The position numbers and the translations under genes were made by a program. The notes beneath the pieces are model-generated. The model was not told where the DNA came from, searched no databases, and saw only the letters and a list, made by a program, of their open reading frames with translations. Positions 5,624-24,481 of a stretch of DNA of 24,481 bases are shown one piece after another. The DNA lies in assembly GCA_001192655.1 (NCBI GenBank), contig BBVC01000015.1:1-24481 (forward strand), read 5' to 3'. Position 1 is the first letter of the stretch. Each line of letters opens with the position of its first letter. The DNA comes from Caedimonas varicaedens. GTDB taxonomy: Bacteria > Pseudomonadota > Alphaproteobacteria > Caedimonadales > Caedimonadaceae.

Positions 5624-7588
5624 ATGTCAGAGCCGAAACTTTATCCAATACACAATCACCTCAAGGGAAAAACTTTTTTTACCGCCGAAAAATATCAACG
5701 CTTTTATAATGAATCCATAGAGAATCCCGAAGCTTTCTGGGCAAAAGAAGCATGCCGTTTAGATTGGATGCAGCCTTTCACAAAAGTTAAAAATACTTCT
5801 TATCACAAGGAAGATTTTCATATCCGTTGGTATGAAGATGGGACTTTGAATGCTTGCTATAATTGTGTTGATCGTCATCTCAAAGACAAGGGAGATCAGG
5901 TGGCGATTTTTTGGGAAGGAGATAATCCCGAAGATTCCCGTACTATAACGTATAAAGAGCTTCATCAGGAAATTTCCAAATTTGCGAATGTGTTGAGAAT
6001 GCACGATGTTCATAAGGGAGATCGCGTGACAATTTATTTGCCCATGATTCCGGAAGCAATTATAGCAATTCTTGCCTGTGCACGGATTGGAGCGATCCAT
6101 TCAGTAGTTTTCGCCGGTTTTTCTGCCGAATCGCTGGAAGGACGGATTTTTGATTGCGACTCCCACTTTCTTGTCACTGCCGACGAAGGCGTAAGAGGTG
6201 GAAAAAAAATTCCTCTCAAGAAAAATGTAGAAGAAGCCTTGCAAGGAAAAGCTGCCCACATCCTCAAAAAGATGATAGTCGTCAAAAGGACAGGCGGCGA
6301 TATTCCCTGGCAGGAGAAAAGAGATTTCTGGTATCATGAAGAAATGGATAAAGTCGCCATTGACTGCCCTTTGGAAGAAATGGGAGCGGAAGATCCTCTT
6401 TTTATTCTCTATACCTCAGGCTCTACAGGAAAGCCAAAGGGCGTTCTGCATACAACAGGTGGCTATCTGGTTTATGCGGCGCTCACACATCAATATGTTT
6501 TTGACTATCATCCCGGCGATATTTATTGGTGTACAGCAGACATAGGCTGGGTGACGGGACACACTTATTCCATCTATGGCCCTCTGGCAAATGGCGCCAC
6601 AATTGTTCTCTTTGAAGGCGTTCCCCAATATCCGGATGCATCACGCTTTTGGAAAATTGTTGATAAATATAAGGTCACGATATTTTATACGGCACCCACC
6701 GTCATAAGGTCTCTCATGCGGGAAGGAACAGATTTTGTGCAGAAAACTTCCCGCGCGTCCTTGCGAATATTGGGCAGTGTAGGAGAGCCCATTAATCCAG
6801 AAGCCTGGGAGTGGTATTATGACAATGTGGGAAACGGCCGTTGCCCTATTATGGATACATGGTGGCAAACAGAAACAGGTGGTATTCTTATTTCTGCCCT
6901 GCCTGGTGTTACTCCTCTAAAACCTGGTTCTGCAACGTTTCCTCTTTTTGGTGTTAAACCTGCTCTTGTTAATCATAAAGGCCAGATTATAGAAAATAAT
7001 AGTGAAGCCGAAGGAAATCTTGTGTTACTTGATTCCTGGCCAGGACAAATGCGCACTGTCTATGGAGATCAAGAACGCTTTATCAAGACTTATTTTACAG
7101 ATTTTCCGGGCATGTACTTCTCCGGAGATGGCGCCCGACGGGATAAAGAAGGAAACTATTGGATCACAGGTCGCGTTGATGACGTCATCAACGTTTCAGG
7201 ACATCGCCTGGGAACAGCAGAAGTGGAAAGCGCGCTTGATGCCCATCCCAAAGTTGTGGAAAGCGCCGTTGTAGGATTCCCCCATGATATCAAGGGTCAA
7301 GGCATTTACGCCTTTGTGACACTTCATAAAAAGGAACCCCCCTCTGAGTCTTTGAGAAAAGAACTGATAGACCTTGTGCGCAGAAAAATTGGGGCGATTG
7401 CAACTCCTGATAGGATTCAGTGGGCGTCGGGGCTTCCCAAAACCCGCTCAGGAAAAATCATGCGTCGTATTTTAAGAAAGATCGCAGCTAATGAGCTGGA
7501 AACTCTGGGAGACATCTCCACGCTTGCCGATCCCCTGGTTGTGGACGATCTTGTGAAAAATCATAAATATACAGTGTCAGCACCTTAA
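5624..7588 (+). CDS. acs: acetyl-CoA synthetase (AMP-forming)
   Basis: The 654-aa ORF carries the AMP-binding motif [11 protein letters not shown]. It also has WWQTETGG, the C-terminal [18 protein letters not shown] with the regulatory Lys, and a GGAGAG Shine-Dalgarno before ATG 5624. Confidence 0.97.
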
Positions 7589-7709: not shown

Positions 7710-8780
7710 TTACTTTGAAAAATTATTCATCAAGATATGCATGTTTTCAAAGAACTTTGAAGTCTTCTCCTTCAATTGAGCTAGAGAAGATTCCAGATTT
7801 TCTTTCATTTGATGAAGGCTTTGTATTTCCTCTTGAGCAGAAGCGACCGAGTCCTCATACAATGATTGCGCTTCTCTAATTTTCTCATCTTTTTTATTTA
7901 TCTCTTTTTCCATATTTTCATGGACCTGTGCTGTCTCTTTTAGTTTTTCCTCGAGTTTAACCTTCTCTTCTTCTTGAGAAGCTTTGTCTTTCAGTATTTG
8001 TGCATACTTATTAAAGAAAAATGCTTTCATCTCTTTTTTTGAAGAAAATTCTGGCAGTTCTGAATCGGGTAAAAGCTCTTTAAGTCGTTGAGCCCATTTA
8101 GTTTCTTCTAAATCTATCCCAAAAAGGTGCCGAAGTTTCTTCTCTTCCTTTGAATTAATAGATCCATATCGAAGATCTTCTCCCATAAGAATACTTTTTG
8201 GGATCACATAAGAAAATTCTTTTTCTGACAAAGAATTCAAAACATGCATGATGCCAAGCCTATTTAACAGCATATAAAGTGCGTTTGCTCTTGCATCATC
8301 AGTCCATTCACCATCTTTGAATTTCTCTCTAAAATGATGATCAATTGTAATTGCTCCGTCAGAAATATCTGAAATGTCAAATTGCCTATCATTGTCTTTA
8401 TTGATCATTTTGTTAAATAAAGTCTGTGGCCACACTTTCTCACCTTCACAATAACGCAAATCCCCTACAGTAATACCAAGCAGTGTTATTTCTCGATCTA
8501 GATCTAACTTTTGTACATAAGCTCCATATCGGCTCTCCATTAAAACTGAATACAACATTTTAGCCTTTTTATTTTCTTCAGCAGCATTATTCACTACCAG
8601 CTGATTATAGGTGAAAGTGACAGGGTCTTCATCAGGTCCCGTAAATAAGGGCGGCACACTAGAAGTATACGTGTACAATTTTTTTGTACCTTCATTTTCC
8701 CCTTCAAGCTGAGTGGATGCACAAACACTACTCGTAAGCAATAATGTACTGATGACAAAACGCAAAAATAACGACTGCAT
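7710..8780 (-). CDS. hypothetical secreted protein: signal peptide, globular domain, C-terminal Glu/Lys-rich coiled coil
   Basis: The 356-aa ORF begins MQSLFLRFVISTLLLTSSVCAS (signal-like). The last ~110 aa (KASQEEEKVKLEEKLKETAQVHENMEKEINKKDEKIREAQSLYED...LAQLKEKT) are heptad-like. The gene is visibly AT-richer than its neighbours. No family recognised. Confidence 0.7.
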   Translation of the reverse strand: MQSLFLRFVISTLLLTSSVCASTQLEGENEGTKKLYTYTSSVPPLFTGPDEDPVTFTYNQLVVNNAAEENKKAKMLYSVLMESRYGAYVQKLDLDREITLLGITVGDLRYCEGEKVWPQTLFNKMINKDNDRQFDISDISDGAITIDHHFREKFKDGEWTDDARANALYMLLNRLGIMHVLNSLSEKEFSYVIPKSILMGEDLRYGSINSKEEKKLRHLFGIDLEETKWAQRLKELLPDSELPEFSSKKEMKAFFFNKYAQILKDKASQEEEKVKLEEKLKETAQVHENMEKEINKKDEKIREAQSLYEDSVASAQEEIQSLHQMKENLESSLAQLKEKTSKFFENMHILMNNFSK

Positions 8781-9600: not shown

Positions 9601-9951
9601 ATGTCTTCAAATCCTATCCATGAGAAAATCTCCTGCGAAATCCAGAATCACCTTGTCGTTCTGTATATGAAAGGAACAAAAACAGCGCCTATGTGCGGAT
9701 TTTCCAGTTTTGTTGCTCAGACACTTAATCGATTGGGAATAGAGTATCATGATGTCAATGTTCTGGAAGATGAGGAAATACGCCAGGGAATCAAAGAATA
9801 CAGCGACTGGCCAACTATTCCACAACTGTACATCAAGGGCGAATTTATCGGTGGTGCAGATATCGTACGGGATATAGTCAAATCTGGCGAGTTTATAGAA
9901 TTATTACAAAAGAAAGAGATCCCTTTTAAAATAGAGAATCAGAGCTTTTAG
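9601..9951 (+). CDS. grxD: monothiol glutaredoxin (Grx4 family, CGFS active site)
   Basis: The 116-aa ORF contains VVLYMKGTKTAPMCGFS, WPTIPQLYIKGEFIGGADI. Confidence 0.95.
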   Translation: MSSNPIHEKISCEIQNHLVVLYMKGTKTAPMCGFSSFVAQTLNRLGIEYHDVNVLEDEEIRQGIKEYSDWPTIPQLYIKGEFIGGADIVRDIVKSGEFIELLQKKEIPFKIENQSF

Positions 9952-9954
9952 CCT

Positions 9955-10818
9955 ATGACGAGCTCTGCTCTCTTGCCTTTATGTGTTGATCTGGATGGCA
10001 CACTTATTCGCACAGATGTTTTGTCAGAAGCCCTTCTTGTTTATCTTAAAAAATCTCCCTGGAAAATATTCCATATCCTTTGGTGGTTCAGTCAGGGACG
10101 CGCCATGCTGAAGAAAAAAATCGCTGATGAAATTGATCTTGATATGTCGTTAATGCCCGTCAATCAGCAAATCGTTGATCTTGTCCTAAAATACAAGGCA
10201 AAGGGACACAAGATTTATTTAGTGACAGCCGCGCCTCAAAAATACGGACAGGCCGCCGCCACATATTTTGGATTTTTTGATGAAGTACTAACCAGCAACT
10301 CTTATATAAATCTTCGCTCAACTCACAAAGCAAAAGCTCTTATCGAACGGTTTGGTGAACAGCAATATATTTACGCGGGAAATTCTGTCCATGACTTGCC
10401 TGTGTGGGCGCATTCTTCTGAAATTATTGCGATTAACACGCCTCGAAAAGTTCTTGAAAAAGCATCTGTCATGAAAAAAAAAATGCACATTATGCACGAA
10501 GGGCTGACTGGGTGGACGGGATTGTTTCAGATCACCCATCCTTTTCATTGGATCCTTAATTTTGTCATTGTTCTTTCTGCCTTCTTTTTTGTTCACAAGG
10601 ACTTAAACAATGTTTTACCCGCTTTTATCGGTTTCAGTTTTTTAACGTCAGGCGTTTATATTTTGACAGACCTGTTCAGTATAAACCAGAATCGCCAATA
10701 TCTCTCGAAAAGCAAGAAACTTGTCGCATCAGGCAGCATTCCCATAGGCTCTGCAATACGATTCTCTCTTACGCTCATTATACTTGGCGTCGTCATCAGT
10801 TTATCCCTCATTTATTAG
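9955..10818 (+). CDS. HAD-IB-type phosphatase domain fused to the first ~100 aa of a UbiA-type prenyltransferase; 3'-truncated and probably non-functional
   Basis: The N-terminus LCVDLDGTLIRTD is HAD motif I. From about aa 190 there are TM helices. The region YILTDLFSINQNRQYLSKSKKLVASG aligns with the UbiA motif Y.LNDL.D...DR.HP.K..RP.A.G, but most Asp/Arg/Pro positions are replaced. The ORF ends after ~3 TM helices, and its TAG (10816-10818) is the first three bases of the IS terminal repeat. Confidence 0.6.
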   Translation: MTSSALLPLCVDLDGTLIRTDVLSEALLVYLKKSPWKIFHILWWFSQGRAMLKKKIADEIDLDMSLMPVNQQIVDLVLKYKAKGHKIYLVTAAPQKYGQAAATYFGFFDEVLTSNSYINLRSTHKAKALIERFGEQQYIYAGNSVHDLPVWAHSSEIIAINTPRKVLEKASVMKKKMHIMHEGLTGWTGLFQITHPFHWILNFVIVLSAFFFVHKDLNNVLPAFIGFSFLTSGVYILTDLFSINQNRQYLSKSKKLVASGSIPIGSAIRFSLTLIILGVVISLSLIY

Positions 10819-11330
10819 ACTTCTTTCGAAACTCAAAATAAGAGTTCAAAATTATAAATACCTGCTATTAAGTTGAACCTTAGAGCGAATCGTTTGCGTC
10901 TATTTCTGTATCGGTCAAAACGCTTATATCAGGGTGAATCCGAGTTTTTGACTCTTTAAACAAACGAAAATGTAGCCAGGTAAAGCAAAGACCGTATGCT
11001 TAACGTATCCTCAAACCCATTTCACGATCTTATAGGCTGTACTTTCACTGATTCCATAACTTTGACTAATATGAAAATACGTCCGATACTCTCTCAAGTA
11101 TTCCAACGCCCTTAACAACATATCTTCAATACAAAGCTTATTATTTCTGCCCTTTTTCTTCAGTTACTGGGCGTTAGTTAAAATCTCTACCATTTTATCA
11201 AATGTGGCATGTTTAATACCGGTTAAACGCCTGAATTTTTCTTCTGCTAATAATTGCGTCTCATGATGCCTCTGTAAAAGCATCACCCTACATAAAATTT
11301 ATCTAAAATTCTAGTTTCGAAAGAAGTCTA
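10816..11330 (-). mobile_element. degraded, internally deleted IS element (IS5-family / Harbinger-like HTH_Tnp_4-type transposase remnant)
   Basis: It is bounded by TAGACTTCTTTCGAAACT (10816-10833) and its reverse complement (11313-11330). Minus-strand translation gives MLLQRHHETQLLAEEKFRRLTGIKHATFDKMVEILTNAQ*LKKKGRNNKLCIEDMLLRALEYLREYRTYFHISQSYGISESTAYKIVKWV*GYVKHTVFALPG...TLI*AF*PIQK*. That is a recognisable transposase N-terminus with several in-frame stops and no DDE domain. TTAT flanks both ends (10812-10815, 11331-11334), a possible 4-bp target duplication. Confidence 0.75.
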
Positions 11331-11402
11331 TTATTATGAGAAGGGCTATTTTGTAAAGCTTGACTTTTTAACTGAGCATACCCATTTATATGACAGATAG
11401 GC

Positions 11403-12932
11403 ATGGAGTGTTGGATATTGGTTGTTAAAAATAAAATACGAGCCTTTATTTTAGGGGCGCTTATACTTTCATTTCTCAATGAAATAAACGCTTCTGATCT
11501 CGAAGAATACAAGTCTCAAGCAAAAAACGCTTCCGTTATCGTATATGGAAAATCACAAGATGGTGAGACGTATGTTTTACTAGCCCATGATAGAAGAGGA
11601 TTTTGGACTCCACCGGGCGGAAAAAGAGAAGCCAACCAATCAATTTTAGATACCGCAGCAGCAGAACTTTATGAAGAAACTGCCGCTTTTGATCTTTTTA
11701 ATCCCTCTAGAATAAAGCCTCTTTTGAAAAAACAACCGTTAAAAAGCGTTTTTAAATATAACGGACATACCGATTTATTTGCATTAAATATTGGGGATCA
11801 AATCGATCAATGTAAAAATATATCTCATAATTATAAAGAACGAGTTAAAGGAAAAAAGCACTCTTTTGATGAAATGAATAACTGGAAACTCTGCAAGGCA
11901 AATGATCTATTTAATTCACTTAAAGCGCATCCTCATACAGTAAACCAAGATACAATCCTTAATAAAATTGGTAAGTTGCCAAAATACGTTTTTAATAGTC
12001 TTTGGAGTTTTTACAATAACGGCTCTTTAGAAAATTTGATGAAAACGTCAACTATTTTATTAAGTCAAAAACAACAGAAGCAAAAAGAGCAAGAGATTGA
12101 TGCCTTTCTTTCTTCCCCGGAACGTCAGGCAATGCTCCGCAAAAATCAGAAAGAATTCTTCAAGCATCAACCAGAAGATTTTTTTGGGAAGCAACCAAAA
12201 AAGAAACAGACCCAAATAAAAGCGCCAGTAGCGCAGAAAGCAAAAACCTCTGCGCAGAAGAAAGCAGATGATGCAGCGCGTCAGTTAGCTGCGCAGAAGA
12301 AGAAAGCAGATGATGCGGCACGTCAGTTAGCTGCGCAGAAGAAGAAAGCAGATGATGCGGTACGTCAGTCCCACTTAGTCGCACAGCAGAAGAAAGCAGA
12401 TGATGCGGTACGTCAGTCCCACTTAGTCGCACAGCAGAAGAAAGCAGATGATGCGGTACGTCAGTCTCACTTAGTCGCACAGCAGAAGAAAGCAGATGAT
12501 GCGGTACGTCAGTCCCACTTAGTCGCACAGCAGAAGAAAGCAGATGATGCGGTACGTCAGTCTCACTTAGTCGCACAGCAGAAGAAAGCAGATGATGCAG
12601 CGCGTCAGTTAGCTGCGCAGAAGAAGAAAGTAGATGATGAAGTGCGCCAGAAGCAGGCTCAATTAGCTCAATTAGCCACACAGAAGAAGAAAGCCCAGGC
12701 AGTAGCAGCGCAGAGAGCAGCGGCACAAAAGGCAAGAACATTGAAGGCAGCTGCACTGAAGAAAGCCCAGGCAGTAGCAGCGCAGAGAGCAGCGGCACAA
12801 AAGGCAAGAACATTGAAGGCAGCTGCACTGAAGAAAGCCCAGGCAGTAGCGGCACAGAGGAAGGCAAAAGCATTGAAGAAAGCCCAGGCAGTAGCGGCAC
12901 AGAGGAAGGCAAAAGCATTGAAGAAAGCATAA
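11403..12932 (+). CDS. signal-peptide protein with a Nudix-hydrolase-like domain and a long C-terminal Lys/Ala/Gln/Asp tandem-repeat region
   Basis: The 509-aa ORF has N-terminal KNKIRAFILGALILSFLNEINA/SD (signal-like). PPGGKREANQSILDTAAAELYEETAA fits the Nudix box GX5EX7REUXEEXGU, except R->A and the last G->A. From about aa 284 to the C-terminus there are two families of in-frame tandem repeats. Confidence 0.8.
   Translation: MECWILVVKNKIRAFILGALILSFLNEINASDLEEYKSQAKNASVIVYGKSQDGETYVLLAHDRRGFWTPPGGKREANQSILDTAAAELYEETAAFDLFNPSRIKPLLKKQPLKSVFKYNGHTDLFALNIGDQIDQCKNISHNYKERVKGKKHSFDEMNNWKLCKANDLFNSLKAHPHTVNQDTILNKIGKLPKYVFNSLWSFYNNGSLENLMKTSTILLSQKQQKQKEQEIDAFLSSPERQAMLRKNQKEFFKHQPEDFFGKQPKKKQTQIKAPVAQKAKTSAQKKADDAARQLAAQKKKADDAARQLAAQKKKADDAVRQSHLVAQQKKADDAVRQSHLVAQQKKADDAVRQSHLVAQQKKADDAVRQSHLVAQQKKADDAVRQSHLVAQQKKADDAARQLAAQKKKVDDEVRQKQAQLAQLATQKKKAQAVAAQRAAAQKARTLKAAALKKAQAVAAQRAAAQKARTLKAAALKKAQAVAAQRKAKALKKAQAVAAQRKAKALKKA
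12252..12677 (+). repeat. in-frame tandem repeat family 1 (nine units; 39/42/48/63 bp)
   Basis: Units start at 12252, 12291, 12333, 12381, 12429, 12477, 12525, 12573 and 12615. The five 48-bp units (12333-12572) encode AQ(K/Q)KKADDAVRQSHLV; the four from 12381 onward differ only by a synonymous TCC/TCT, while the first (12333) also differs in its first three codons. The 42-bp variants encode AQKKKADDAARQLA. Confidence 0.95.
12687..12920 (+). repeat. in-frame tandem repeat family 2 (2 x 72 bp, then 2 x 45 bp)
   Basis: 12687-12758 and 12759-12830 encode KKAQAVAAQRAAAQKARTLKAAAL. 12831-12875 and 12876-12920 encode KKAQAVAAQRKAKAL. Within each pair the copies are identical by eye. Confidence 0.95.
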
Positions 12933-13027
12933 ATGAAGCGGGGCCGCACACCGCCAAAAGCAGGCTTGTCTAGCTTGAACGTTTAGTCAAATATTTTATG
13001 AACTATAAAACATCCAACCAAGTATAT

Positions 13028-13314
13028 AATAGACTTCTTTCGAAACTCATAACAGGATTTCAAAATTATTGCTGATCGGTATAGAAATAGACACAAACGC
13101 TTTGCTCTAAGATTCAACTTATAGCTCTTTTCATAATAGTCCAGACTAATGTAAATACCTGATCTATGATTCTTTTCCCAAGAACATGAATTTGAATTCT
13201 ATAGGAGAAGTTTTAAATCAATGCGCCTAAGAGTTCAGACTATTATGAAAAGGGCTATAATATCAATTATCTATAATTTTGAAATCCTGTTATGAGTTTC
13301 GAAAGAAGTCTATT
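13028..13314. mobile_element. non-coding MITE-like element related to the IS at 10816-11330
   Basis: It has perfect 42-bp terminal inverted repeats: AATAGACTTCTTTCGAAACTCATAACAGGATTTCAAAATTAT at 13028-13069 and its reverse complement at 13273-13314. These share the 18-nt terminus of the IS. 13074-13125 resembles the inverted 10864-10916. An inner 21-bp inverted repeat lies at 13121-13141 / 13238-13258 with one mismatch. There is no ORF. Confidence 0.8.
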
Positions 13315-20804: not shown

Positions 20805-21422
20805 ATGGGGAACTTATCCAAACAACTATTTTTGTGTTTATTATTTATTTTATGTAACCAAACTTTAGTCAAAGCGGGAGATATAGAACGTCTACAGAAA
20901 ATGCTGGATACACAAAAACGTTCTAATCCCCTGGATCTTCCCAATCATGATTTCCGCGCTCAATCCTTTGATGCTCAAGAGACGCTATCTTTTGTGAACT
21001 CAAATTTTCAAAATGGTAATTTCTCAGGAACTGTTGATAATCCCAAACGGATTAACAATATTGATTTTTCAGAATGTAACCTTGGAAATGCGAATTTTTC
21101 TTATTGTATCATTACGCATTGCAAATTTAACGATGCTCAATTAAAAGGCGTTAAATTTGAGGGATCAACAATAAAATTTACCTCTTTTCGCAGAGCTATT
21201 ATGCCTGAAGCAAATTTAAATCTCACCCAGCAAGAATCTGTGGGTTATGACGAAGCCAATATTACCTGTTCAACATGGGCAGGTGCTGATCTATTTCGCG
21301 TCAGTTTTACACGCACAGATGAACGAGGGATGGATAAGACAGACTTAAAAGAAAGAGACTGTTCTCATGAATACGCAGTGACAACAGGATTGTTTGATTC
21401 TTTCAGTTGTAAGAAAAAATAA
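20805..21422 (+). CDS. pentapeptide-repeat protein with N-terminal signal peptide
   Basis: The 205-aa ORF begins MGNLSKQLFLCLLFILCNQTLVKA/GD. The centre, NFQNGNFSGT...IDFSECNLGNANFSYCIITHCKFNDAQLKGVKFEGSTIKFTSFRRAIMPEANLNL...ANITCSTWAGADLFRVSFTRTD, shows the 5-residue A(D/N)LXX periodicity. Confidence 0.8.
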   Translation: MGNLSKQLFLCLLFILCNQTLVKAGDIERLQKMLDTQKRSNPLDLPNHDFRAQSFDAQETLSFVNSNFQNGNFSGTVDNPKRINNIDFSECNLGNANFSYCIITHCKFNDAQLKGVKFEGSTIKFTSFRRAIMPEANLNLTQQESVGYDEANITCSTWAGADLFRVSFTRTDERGMDKTDLKERDCSHEYAVTTGLFDSFSCKKK

Positions 21423-22435: not shown

Positions 22436-22559
22436 TTCTAAAGCTTAGATTTTCTATAAGAACAGCGCCTATGTCATGGATATAAAAGAAAACAGGAGTA
22501 ATGCATCATCGCCTGCTGCCAGCAGAATAAACATACATGAACGGCAACTGTTAATTTGG

Positions 22560-22888
22560 CTAAAATCTGAATAAGGGTGTGTTGGTTTGTCTGTGGCATT
22601 TTCCCAAAAAACTCAGCTTCAATTTGACGATAGGCACCAAGGTGTGGATGAGCGCTTTACCCTTATTCGTAAGAGATGCGTTTTTAGCGCGCGTATCAGT
22701 TTCGTGTTCTACGCGTCTCACCAGTTCCAGTGCTACGAGCTTCTCCAGAGATTTAGACACTGTCATCTTATCAAGCTTAGACTAGTTGACGATGAGATTT
22801 TGGGATGAGGTTATTTCTCTTTTTGAGAGGGCTCTTTGCAGGCTTGTTGGGACTGAACCCTAGAAATCACAGAATAGTTTATCCTCAT
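22560..22888 (-). pseudogene. decayed MarR-family transcriptional regulator
   Basis: The 68-aa ORF (22560-22766) is only the recognition helix and wing of a MarR wHTH (TVSKSLEKLVALELVRRVEHETDTRAKNASLTNKGKAL). The same frame continues upstream as ...VPTSLQRALSKREITSSQNLIVN*SKLDKM, so an in-frame TAG lies inside the HTH. A further TAG lies upstream, and the only ATG (22888) is in another frame. Both the N- and C-terminal regions are shorter than a normal MarR. Confidence 0.55.
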
Positions 22889-23043
22889 AAGAGATAATTT
22901 GAAATTACCGATGGGTTTCGGTCATTTAATTGCCATTATATATAAAGTTATAAATAGTAAAATATTTTATATATACACTAATAATTAATAAATGAAGTAT
23001 AATATTAAATAATAGTGTGGTCTATTTATTTTTGGAGGCAGAA

Positions 23044-24481
23044 ATGGCTCAATCTGTAATTACAATTAAAGATTCTCTGGGAAACATGATTGCTTCGGGT
23101 ACTTCTACAGCAGATTTGATATTAAGCCTTAAAGGCAACAATGCCGTTTTTGGGTTTAGTGGAGATGATATTCTGCTGGCAGGCAATGGTAGTGATTATC
23201 TTTATGGGGGTGCGGGGAATGATATTCTCTATGGCGGCGCCGGAAATGATATTCTCTATGGCGGCGCCGGAAATGATATCCTTTTTGGAGGGGCAGGCTC
23301 TGATCGACTTTATGGCGGATCAGGCAATGACATCCTCAGTGGCGGGAGCAAGGGTGATTTTATAGACCCCGGGATAGGAAATGATCTTGTTGCGGGTGGA
23401 AGCGGCAATGATGTATTTGTCCATAATATCAAAGAGAATATTGGAAGTACGGATTACTATCTCGGAGGCGGCGGGCAGGATACACTTGTCCTGGCTGTGG
23501 ATACAATTGCGCAAGAGAACTTTATTCTCAATAACATTAAACCTGTATTTACAAGCAATTTTGCGGGCACAAGTAAACTGTTCGATTTCTCCTTATACAC
23601 CAGCTTGAGCAGCCCTGTCGGACTTATGGATCTTTCCATCCGGGGATTTAATACCTTACTCGTCAATTTAAACCCTGTTGTCGTCAATGACAGTGGTACG
23701 CTCATTGTGTCACGCGTTAACCCTGTCGCGGATACGCTGAGTCTTAATATTTTGAGCAATGACAGTGATCCCGATAAAAGCAATTCTAATGATATCCTTC
23801 CTGGTGATCATATCGCCGGAAAAGTTTTAGTTGTAGGTGAGATCCAAAATGTCTCTGTTTCTGGTGCAGGAGCTTCTCAAGTTCTTTCTATTAGCGAAGT
23901 TGCTTTTGATCCTTTTATGGGAGAAATGGACAAATTTACCCTTCACACAGCAGCAGGAGATGCGACACTACTGATCAAATCAGACGGCACGGTTACTCTC
24001 AGCACGAATAATGTATTTGATAATATTTTGGGTAATGTGGATATTAATATTCAATACACAGCTGATGACCAGCTGGGAGGTCGTAATAGTGCTACCGCTG
24101 CTCTGCATGTCATTACAGACAGACCGCCTATAGCCCTGGACGACAGCGGTCAAATGAAAGAAGATACGAATACTGTCGCCAAACCCAATCCTCTTTTGGG
24201 AAATATCTTAAGCAATGATAGCGATCCCGATGCGGGAGATGTTTTAAAAGTCATTTCTGTCAAGGGAGTGGCCGGAAACGTGGGCGTGGATGTTGCCGGA
24301 ACTTACGGAATCCTCCACCTCAATATGGATGGAACTTATAAATATACTCTTAACAATAGCTTGCCTTCTGTACAATCTTTGGCAGAAGGACAGCAGGTTC
24401 ATGACATTTTTGCCTATACGATCAGCGATGGCCATGGAGGAACAGCATCAGCCAATCTTGATATGACTGTTATCGGCACGA
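23044..24481 (+). CDS. large RTX (GGxGxD nonapeptide) / VCBS-cadherin-like repeat protein, 5' part only (ORF continues past the right edge)
   Basis: Hand translation from ATG 23044 (GGAGG 5 nt upstream) is open for 479 codons to the window end. It begins MAQSVITIKD. It then has about 9 calcium-binding nonapeptides (GNGSDYLYGGAGNDILYGGAGNDILYGGAGNDILFGGAGSDRLYGGSGNDILSGG...). Two units of VCBS-like type follow (..VVNDSGT...LNILSNDSDPD... and ..ALDDSGQMKEDT...GNILSNDSDPDAGDVLKVISV...GTYKYTLNN...L.EGQQVHDIFAYTISDGHGGTASANLDMTVIG). Confidence 0.85.
   Translation, partial: MAQSVITIKDSLGNMIASGTSTADLILSLKGNNAVFGFSGDDILLAGNGSDYLYGGAGNDILYGGAGNDILYGGAGNDILFGGAGSDRLYGGSGNDILSGGSKGDFIDPGIGNDLVAGGSGNDVFVHNIKENIGSTDYYLGGGGQDTLVLAVDTIAQENFILNNIKPVFTSNFAGTSKLFDFSLYTSLSSPVGLMDLSIRGFNTLLVNLNPVVVNDSGTLIVSRVNPVADTLSLNILSNDSDPDKSNSNDILPGDHIAGKVLVVGEIQNVSVSGAGASQVLSISEVAFDPFMGEMDKFTLHTAAGDATLLIKSDGTVTLSTNNVFDNILGNVDINIQYTADDQLGGRNSATAALHVITDRPPIALDDSGQMKEDTNTVAKPNPLLGNILSNDSDPDAGDVLKVISVKGVAGNVGVDVAGTYGILHLNMDGTYKYTLNNSLPSVQSLAEGQQVHDIFAYTISDGHGGTASANLDMTVIGT
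23229..23282 (+). repeat. perfect 27-bp tandem duplication inside the RTX block
   Basis: AATGATATTCTCTATGGCGGCGCCGGA occurs at 23229-23255 and again at 23256-23282, one nonapeptide unit each. Confidence 0.95.

Follow-up and report, generated by a model that had tools for sequence, protein, structure and literature searches.

Cva_00349 (GAO97712.1) is the 509-amino-acid product of an open reading frame (ORF) at positions 11403..12932 of a 24,481-bp contig of Caedimonas varicaedens, hereafter the window; the gene and all its parts given below are on the plus strand. It is annotated as 'hypothetical protein' and named 'Nudix hydrolase domain-containing protein' in UniRef. Judged by its sequence, this predicted exported protein is a member of a rare, new subfamily of Nudix proteins with Sec-type leaders. 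Its presence in only some Caedimonas strains is best explained by acquisition on a 2.5-kb insert bounded by insertion sequences (IS). We tentatively read Cva_00349 as a Sec-exported, probably active Nudix enzyme serving as a host-interaction factor of an obligate intracellular symbiont, and assign this reading a probability of roughly 45%.

Caedimonas varicaedens belongs to the Holosporales, lives as an obligate intracellular symbiont in Paramecium and confers the killer trait; its lineage also has macronuclear forms (PMC11909080). The effectors and the killer toxin of Caedimonas have not been identified, and the effectors of Holosporales symbionts, as well as the toxin antidote, are essentially unknown (PMC11909080).

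Nudix domain and predicted export leader

The Nudix-fold domain with extra C-terminal helices spans residues 31-222 (11493..12068), as delineated by Pfam, AlphaFold2 (AF2) and Foldseek. The profile PF00293 matches residues 42-174 with 29.2 bits (E 1e-6), above its gathering score of 21.1. The same cut-off was passed by six of the eight other family members scanned, whereas P0024 had no match and P0002 scored 19.9, just under the cut-off. The AF2 model of residues 31-222, built with the 13-sequence family alignment, has a predicted local distance difference test score (pLDDT) of 95.1 and a predicted template modelling (TM) score of 0.90. A Foldseek search with this model returned 107 PDB chains at E<=1e-3, and all matches listed are Nudix-fold structures. 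The leading ones are Dcp2 of S. pombe, human NUDT16, coenzyme A (CoA) pyrophosphatase, diadenosine tetraphosphate (Ap4A) hydrolases and DIPP1/2, with TM scores of 0.4-0.6. Sequence searches of PDB matched many Nudix enzymes around the Nudix box only (best E about 1e-6). In the model, residues 31-222 adopt the Nudix fold, and both profile and fold place the protein in the superfamily. The Nudix assignment made in a preliminary description of the gene, for which a check on a model structure had been proposed, is thus borne out.

The Nudix box (GGKREANQSILDTAAAELYEETAA, residues 72-95) is a variant one. Read from the sequence, the segment G73-A95 (11619..11687) has the form G-x5-Q79-x7-A87-E88-L-Y-E91-E92-T-A94-A95. 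It departs from the full consensus GX5EX7REUXEEXGU at Gln79 (for Glu), Ala87 (for Arg) and Ala94 (for Gly), and Ala95 stands at the bulky aliphatic position. The preliminary description had correctly recorded the retained EE pair and the replacements of Arg and Gly by Ala, but it missed the change of the Glu of GX5E to Gln79.

The glutamates E88, E91 and E92, equivalent to E53, E56 and E57 of MutT, are invariant in the 13-member alignment (full-length residue numbers are alignment numbers plus 30). Further invariant positions are L59, P71, G72, G73, L89, A95, F99, T123, R147, E157 and W161. One acidic position outside the box, Glu157 (11871..11873), is conserved together with T123, R147 and W161 and could provide a fourth metal ligand or the general base. 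The box variant ELY/FEE[TS]AA is found in 12 of the 13 aligned members, and one keeps the Gly. The Glu and Arg of the box are both present in P0032 and P0033 only, the other eleven members having neither. This co-occurrence fits the loss of a paired interaction, but it is only suggestive, the two proteins probably being sister sequences. Hydrolase activity of Cva_00349 is probably retained, because the acidic residues are invariant in members that are only 29-55% identical. An inspection by eye, usable as a lead only, revealed none of the specificity motifs considered (Pro or Tyr about 16 residues past the box, SQPWPFPxS, and the CoA motif NuCoA).

The N-terminus contains a candidate Sec-type signal peptide, residues 1-30 (11403..11492), with predicted cleavage at INA30|SD. 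It was recognized by a crude custom rule combining a basic n-region, a hydrophobic core of 7-15 residues and small residues at positions -3/-1, with controls taken from the window. All eight negatives (ClpB, Acs, zeta, Grx, DapB, Fpg, HAD, M16) and both positives (the two solute-binding proteins) were classified correctly; SURF1 and COX3 were flagged with cores of 18-19 residues, which are transmembrane-like. Under this rule the N-terminus of Cva_00349 has the features of a Sec leader cleaved by signal peptidase I (SPase-I): a basic n-region with a net charge of +2 or +3, a 12-residue uncharged core AFILGALILSFL with a mean Kyte-Doolittle value of 2.68, and a single site satisfying the -3/-1 rule, INA|SDL. 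Since the core comprises 12 residues, a cleaved leader is more plausible than a membrane anchor, in agreement with the signal-peptide-like N-terminus noted before. An alternative start, TTG at 11418 with GGAG at 11405-11408 (9-nt spacing), would yield MVVKNKIR..., a still more canonical leader, and the rule accepts the leader with either start. As there is no in-frame start codon between the leader and the first beta-strand, the leader is unavoidable.

Sec-type leaders were found in ten of the 13 aligned members, namely the window protein, P0024 and P0026-P0033. In P0024 the leader stands before an extra N-terminal region of about 300 amino acids and not directly before the Nudix domain, and in P0028 the cleavage site GFA|A was read by eye, the rule having found none. 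P0025 and P0037 are leaderless. The ortholog P0002 from a metagenome-assembled genome (MAG) would be the eleventh leader-bearing member only if its start were repaired. Its called start leaves the leader out, but the upstream frame reads KIKRFIILCFFISKIANINA|VELADYDSNAKSA, in parallel to KNKIRAFILGALILSFLNEINA|SDLEEYKSQAKNA of Cva_00349. In this region (L001, 9889-10003) there is an in-frame stop just upstream, and the only ATG is one frame off, across a run of seven T at 9924-9930. Either the assembly is wrong here, or there is a frameshift or a non-canonical start. The predicted leader is a trait of the subfamily, and both the rule and this conservation point to export of Cva_00349 with cleavage at 30|31. 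No relevant precedent of bacterial periplasmic or signal-peptide Nudix proteins was found in the literature searched.

A rare subfamily and its relatives

A word-indexed search of 5.8 billion clusters yielded two homologs of Cva_00349. HMMER, run exhaustively with a profile against 1.84 billion representatives, produced 30 matches at E<=1e-3, 12 of them at E<=1e-10, and the size of the subfamily is about 13 clusters among 15 billion proteins. Ten members (P0024-P0033) were looked up, and each proved to be a metagenome-derived singleton cluster. No member was added by a third word-indexed search, run with the family profile, and scans of GTDB species representatives and of metagenomes with family patterns returned only the known MAG and the SDBT01 contig. 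The search of annotated plasmids and phages with the domain (tblastn) gave no match, and hence no sign of carriage of the gene by plasmids or phages. No description of the subfamily was found in the open-access literature searched. The examined contigs of family members look like Gram-negative bacterial genomes.

In the second genome, the NCBI MAG, the domain is 55-57% identical to that of Cva_00349. The Nudix observation goes beyond chance, since the domain is conserved both in this genome and in the 13-member family. The context of the ortholog is different, as P0002 lies between an EamA transporter gene and citrate synthase. The MAG (L001/L003, GCA_050954885.1, JBPBPI010000089.1) is titled 'Janthinobacterium lividum'; given a locus GC content of 0.36 and the gene set of a small genome, this label seems doubtful.

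The conserved unit across members consists of the leader and the Nudix domain only. The C-terminal tails are mutually unrelated: A/K/Q-rich and basic in the window protein, made of FG-rich 27-amino-acid repeats in P0002, formed by a common region of about 150 amino acids in P0027-P0029, by three 57-amino-acid repeats in P0030 and by an unrelated stretch of about 80 amino acids in P0026, and absent from P0031-P0033. Pfam recognized no domain in the tails of eight family members. Thus the first two parts of the leader-Nudix-tail architecture described previously are conserved, but the third is replaced by FG repeats, another C-terminal domain, 57-residue repeats or nothing.

The tail of P0002 (L001, 10630-10866) is an 81-nt tandem repeat in 2.9 copies with FG-rich units (TTVVTKPATSTSFTGFGNFFAGFGNQQ) on an N/Q/S/T-rich background. 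Its composition is reminiscent of nucleoporin FG domains, and it takes the place of the basic helical tail on the same type of Nudix domain.

The nearest whole-domain relatives outside the subfamily are giant-virus or giant-virus-like Nudix proteins, which were not foreseen among the precedents named in the preliminary description. The BFVD matches to the model are Nudix proteins of Pithovirus, Solivirus, Bodo saltans virus, Fadolivirus, Catovirus, Marseillevirus, Paramecium bursaria chlorella virus (PBCV) and Clandestinovirus, with E from 1e-9 to 1e-7 and TM up to 0.71 across about 190-210 columns; solved structures all match less well. For the proteins of Bodo saltans virus (A0A2H4UVA4), Marseillevirus LCMAC202 (A0A481YY75) and PBCV NY2A (B457L), TM is 0.59-0.71 and E is about 1e-9 to 4e-8. 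The same holds at the level of profile coverage: on the hidden Markov model (HMM) of 186 positions, the signal-less proteins P0035, P0036 and P0038 align at positions 5-173 and the giant-virus MAG loci L021 and L028 at 7-145, whereas ordinary bacterial and phage Nudix proteins align at the box only (about 17-72). The 54-kb contig encoding P0036 also carries eIF-1A, a Ras/Arf GTPase, an mRNA-cap methyltransferase-kinase fusion, an RFC subunit and a DEAD helicase, a gene set typical of giant viruses.

These relatives and the subfamily have in common PGG, EL[YF]EET and the downstream Glu (Glu157 is kept in P0035, P0036 and P0038). Unlike Cva_00349, they have no repeat tails, do not keep W161 and lack a cleavable Sec leader: by the leader rule there is none in P0035 and P0036, and P0038 has a hydrophobic first strand with no cleavage site. 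At least one giant-virus Nudix enzyme, L375 of Mimivirus, decaps mRNA (PMC8478210).

Among solved structures, the top matches belong to Dcp2, NUDT16 (X29) and the DIPP proteins NUDT3/4 (5kq4 with E 1.6e-5; also 3mgm, 2q9p, 7nnj), and the decapping enzymes Dcp2 and NUDT16/X29 lead the PDB fold search at TM of only 0.4-0.5. Neither a regulatory domain of the Dcp2 kind nor Box B was recognized in Cva_00349. The subfamily profile also matches DIPPs, RppH, Dcp2 and g5R of African swine fever virus among PDB sequences, the latter with E 0.005.

Effectors combining a secretory signal peptide with a Nudix domain are known from eukaryotic pathogens, namely Avr3b of Phytophthora and MoNUDIX and CtNUDIX of Magnaporthe and Colletotrichum; the fungal ones hydrolyse inositol pyrophosphates. 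They have the same leader-then-Nudix architecture as Cva_00349, and their producers also live on or in a eukaryotic host. However, their signal peptides are of the eukaryotic endoplasmic reticulum type (with RXLR in oomycetes) and not bacterial Sec leaders. Proteins of this type are not among the 30 matches of the exhaustive profile search, and the likeness is one of architecture only.

Bacterial Nudix proteins with host links, most of which had been suggested as precedents, fit less well. Hpx26/RipN of Ralstonia and XCV0537 of Xanthomonas are Nudix proteins delivered to a eukaryotic host, but by type III secretion and without a Sec leader, unlike Cva_00349, and no relationship to them was detected. 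For RipN in particular the export route is type III and not Sec (PMC4981494). IalA, InvA, NudA and RppH are Nudix enzymes of intracellular pathogens (ApnA and RNA pyrophosphohydrolases), historically tied to invasion phenotypes. Unlike Cva_00349, they are cytosolic, leaderless and have a canonical box. NCBIfam gave only sub-threshold matches of Cva_00349 to YtkD (23.5 bits, cut-off 154) and NudB (17.3, cut-off 103) and none to RppH, which speaks against the choice of the RppH-type proteins IalA, InvA and NudA as models.

Mobile insert, strain variation and tail

The gene was proposed earlier to be an accessory one lying between IS remnants. Indeed, there are IS-derived elements on both sides and empty sites in sister strains. 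Contigs encoding a HAD protein at least 90% identical to that of the window fall into two classes. The site is occupied in the window, in L009 (101 kb) and in L002, and L010 ends inside the IS remnant. It is empty in L011-L014, representing 21 contigs, where the HAD and M16 peptidase genes are 26 bp apart. Both flanks are about 97% identical to the window in occupied and empty classes alike. The comparison of occupied and empty sites delimits an insert of about 2.5 kb (10817..13311) consisting of an IS remnant, the Nudix gene and a miniature inverted-repeat transposable element (MITE), and flanked by a 3-bp target-site duplication, ATT, at 10814..10816 on the left and 13312..13314 on the right. 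The empty junction reads CATTT[ATT]GAATTC, and the occupied ones CATTT[ATT]AGACTTC... (left) and ...GAAGTCT[ATT]GAATTC (right).

Element A (10816..11330, minus strand) is a degraded IS recognized by terminal inverted repeats (TIRs) and domain matches. It retains both TIRs (TAGACTTCTTTCGAAACT; 10816-10833, plus strand, and 11313-11330, minus strand) and transposase fragments, including an ORF at 11011-11121 (minus strand) that matches HTH_Tnp_4 (PF13613, E 5e-12). The copy in L002 keeps a 102-amino-acid DDE_Tnp_4 ORF. Compared with L009, L002 and L010, 177 bp are missing from the window copy at 10906/7. Element B (13030..13312) is a 283-bp MITE-like derivative of the same IS with 55-nt inverted arms (inverted repeat I2, 91% complementarity) and TIR matches at 13030-13047 (plus strand) and 13295-13312 (minus strand). 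The 18-nt sequence TAGACTTCTTTCGAAACT occurs in the window exactly four times, in two inverted pairs, versus 0 copies expected. The TIRs, the transposase remnants, the target duplication and the empty site in relatives together mark an insert of the IS5 type (DDE_Tnp_4).

The triplet ATT is found on both sides of Element A (10814-10816 and 11331-11333) and to the right of Element B (13312-13314), and AAT to its left (13027-13029). The data are consistent with movement of a composite transposon or with IS-IS recombination bringing the gene and Element B into a resident IS; both origins remain because the inner ATT follows Element A. In empty-site strains the HAD gene ends with TGA. Its stop codon in the window, TAG (10816-10818), spans the left junction and is formed by the last T of ATT and the first two bases of the insert; the protein still has 287 amino acids.

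Over residues 1-243 the window, L009 and L002 encode the same protein sequence (three synonymous and no non-synonymous codon differences), while the neighbouring HAD gene has five of each, numbers that are too small for statistics. The six amino acid differences before the arrays diverge are all at residues 244-299, outside the Nudix domain. The preliminary description had asked whether the gene is a pseudogene in related strains; it is intact wherever present, and only the distant MAG ortholog has a disrupted start. The repeat arrays differ: five 16-residue, two 24-residue and two 15-residue units in the window against one, five and one, respectively, in L009, which is without the VDDEVRQKQAQLAQLATQ segment. 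The total length is nevertheless exactly 509 amino acids in both the window and L009 (9626-11155), which is either a coincidence or the result of a constraint on how long the helical tail may be. Fewer repeat units are present in L002; as the end of its contig falls within the repeats, they may have collapsed in assembly.

The Nudix domain is followed by a Q/K/E-rich linker, residues 223-279 (12069..12239), delimited by sequence and low AF2 confidence, and by the tail proper. Two tandem arrays were identified by Tandem Repeats Finder and repeat finding, one of nine 42- and 48-nt units (AQKKKADDAARQLA / AQQKKADDAVRQSHLV) at 12254..12657, the other of 72- and 45-nt units (KKAQAVAAQRAAAQKARTLKAAAL / KKAQAVAAQRKAKAL) at 12686..12928. 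Residues 280-509 (230 amino acids) have pI 10.8, with 57 K+R versus 19 D+E; residues 233-509 comprise 74 A, 51 K and 44 Q out of 277. Helices are predicted at 280-370 and 382-508 by single-sequence AF2, with block-mean pLDDT of 53-91, mostly above 70, and mostly 75-91 in the second helix. In this full-length prediction the Nudix domain has pLDDT below 50, and only the helical call of the tail is usable. The basic A/K/Q-rich helical repeat tail of about 230 residues was thus described correctly, in DNA repeats, charge and two long predicted helices. Its proposed likeness to TolA linkers or histone H1, however, is one of composition only and has no profile support: Pfam gave no family for residues 233-509 at E<=0.1. 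A reading of the tail as YjdP was dropped, as the NCBIfam match is at chance level (E 2.3). An antisense ORF at 12160-12957 (minus strand, 265 amino acids) was rejected as a gene, since it lies entirely inside the tandem repeats and is an artefact of stop-free repeat sequence.

Candidate functions and neighbouring sequences

If Cva_00349 is a host-interaction factor, it could act as follows. Firstly, the 30-residue leader would carry the protein over the inner membrane and be cleaved off after Ala30, as suggested by sequence rules and family conservation. Secondly, the mature Nudix domain of 190 residues would bind a divalent metal via Glu88, Glu91 and Glu92 plus Glu157 and cleave the pyrophosphate bond of a nucleoside-diphosphate-X (NDP-X) or related substrate outside the bacterial cytoplasm. 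Finally, the basic helical repeat tail may be a variable module that tethers or directs the protein to a polyanionic partner, which could be nucleic acid, membrane or envelope. The target would be a host-derived pyrophosphate-containing molecule; judged by structural neighbours of the model, it could be an RNA 5' cap or another NDP-X (as for Dcp2, NUDT16 and the giant-virus type) or an inositol pyrophosphate (as for the DIPP type). This role is favoured because the gene is dispensable and mobile, the tails are modular and fast-changing, and the relatives work in the eukaryotic cytoplasm. The host-directed effector put forward in the preliminary description is plausible but still a candidate role.

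Several considerations weigh against this role. A Sec leader by itself delivers a protein to the periplasm only, and substrates of type VI systems normally have no Sec leaders. No route of export through the outer membrane is evident in the window, and type VI is the kind of secretion regarded as typical of the Holosporineae (PMC11909080). The tail-less members P0031-P0033, of which P0031 lies on a contig among ordinary housekeeping genes, suggest that the subfamily as a whole may consist of periplasmic enzymes and not of effectors. Activity may be reduced or lost, three canonical box positions (Gln79, Ala87, Ala94) being changed. The similarity of the domain to Dcp2, NUDT16 and DIPP (TM only 0.4-0.6, identity 13-20%) is too loose for transfer of substrate, and the contrast of synonymous and non-synonymous differences in Cva_00349 rests on three changes.

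The main alternative, though less probable, is the function of a periplasmic enzyme of nucleotide and cofactor salvage, which would split host NAD(H), ADP-ribose, FAD, CoA, NDP-sugars or dinucleoside polyphosphates for import through the inner membrane, with the helical tail as a TolA-like spacer or envelope tether. The logic is analogous to that of NadN and UshA. The periplasm is where a Sec leader with an SPase-I site would take a protein that has no other secretion signal, and the tail-less members, with P0031 among housekeeping genes, agree with such a role. So does the tail: with its A/K/Q/D composition and long helices it resembles periplasm-spanning helical domains, and the common length of 509 amino acids, despite different arrays in the two strains, would agree with a constraint on length. 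Moreover, the Holosporales rely heavily on host metabolites (PMC11909080). However, the gene is missing in sister strains about 97% identical in the flanks, and such dispensability is not expected of a core salvage step; there is no transporter or salvage gene on the insert. Besides, the tails are unrelated across members, the TolA likeness is without profile support, and the nearest whole-domain relatives are giant-virus proteins acting in the eukaryotic cytoplasm.

A more specific form of host interaction seems unlikely to us. Here the protein would leave the bacterium by lysis, in vesicles or by an unrecognised route and act in Paramecium like a giant-virus or eukaryotic decapping-type Nudix enzyme, removing mRNA caps or destroying an inositol pyrophosphate signal. 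The exchangeable tails would pick host compartments, basic helices directing the enzyme to nucleic acid or the nucleus and the nucleoporin-like FG repeats of the MAG ortholog being another such module.

It is quite unlikely that Cva_00349 is a catalytically impaired Nudix-fold binding module working as an exported adaptor or surface protein, like TIRR (NUDT16L1) or, in some species, the NUDT9-H domain of TRPM2. Such a domain would hold a protein or a nucleotide-like ligand and leave it unhydrolysed. The three altered box residues would fit such a module, and the Nudix domains of TIRR and TRPM2 are among the fold matches. However, invariance of the three metal-binding glutamates and of a fourth acidic residue would be unexpected if catalysis were lost, and two members (P0032, P0033) keep the Glu...Arg pair.

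Finally, it is very improbable that the gene encodes a housekeeping Nudix hydrolase of the cytosol whose start was mis-called, or that it is a decaying functionless hitch-hiker with a tail produced by in-frame repeat expansion. In favour of this reading, it is an accessory gene beside degraded IS copies, its repeat units are all multiples of three, so that the frame survives slippage, and the start of P0002 is disrupted. Against it, the leader is conserved across the family with no in-frame start codon behind it up to the first beta-strand, the positions invariant in the family point to selection, and the domain is the same in three strains and intact wherever present; the NCBIfam housekeeping Nudix equivalogs are far under their cut-offs.

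As a predicted exported enzyme with a conserved active site, Cva_00349 is a concrete, testable effector candidate for a Holosporales symbiont, and the natural strains with and without the insert, about 3% apart, are ready for comparison. The giant-virus affinity of the subfamily would add a case of gene exchange between viruses and bacteria in common protist hosts. Should the substrate be RNA caps or inositol pyrophosphates, a strategy of poxviruses, giant viruses and plant-pathogenic fungi would extend to bacterial endosymbionts. If there is decapping-type action in the host, giant viruses and protist endosymbionts would have a catalytic module in common, and the gene might then underlie some of the host-manipulation traits of Caedimonas that vary between strains. 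A periplasmic salvage enzyme would be a modest addition to Nudix diversity.

The genes around Cva_00349 in the window are ordinary alphaproteobacterial ones: ClpB, an amino acid permease, Acs, ATPase inhibitor zeta, BolA, Grx and the HAD protein upstream, and the M16 peptidase, SURF1, COX3 and a solute-binding protein downstream. The GC content of the non-repeat, Nudix-domain part of the gene is 0.34 versus 0.416 for the window, in accordance with the AT-richness remarked upon earlier. A sigma-70 scan produced no promoter that was convincing under the criteria of the tool; TTGACT at 11360-11365 with an AT-rich stretch is a visual lead only.

The acetyl-CoA synthetase gene is whole (654 amino acids) in the window (5624-7588) and in empty-site strains, and split (306 + 345 amino acids) in the insert-bearing L009 (3670-5633) and L010 (1112-3075). 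In the roughly 2 kb of 22436-24481 no ORF exceeds 108 amino acids, and the GC skew is locally strong (+0.30 at 23001-23500); this segment may contain degraded gene remnants.

Candidate leaders were also observed in two other proteins of the window. A pentapeptide-repeat protein (20805-21422, plus strand; Pfam PF13599/PF00805) has a Sec-type leader (…CNQTLVKA|GDI), which suggests export. An orphan ORF of 356 amino acids at 7710-8780 (minus strand), 2.6 kb upstream of the Nudix gene, has a Sec-type leader (…LLLTSSVCA|STQ), GC of about 0.34, an E/K-rich, coiled-coil-like C-terminus and no Pfam match. By its sequence it would be a second exported variable protein, with a length of 341 amino acids in L009, 356 in the window and L010, and 380 in L011-L013.

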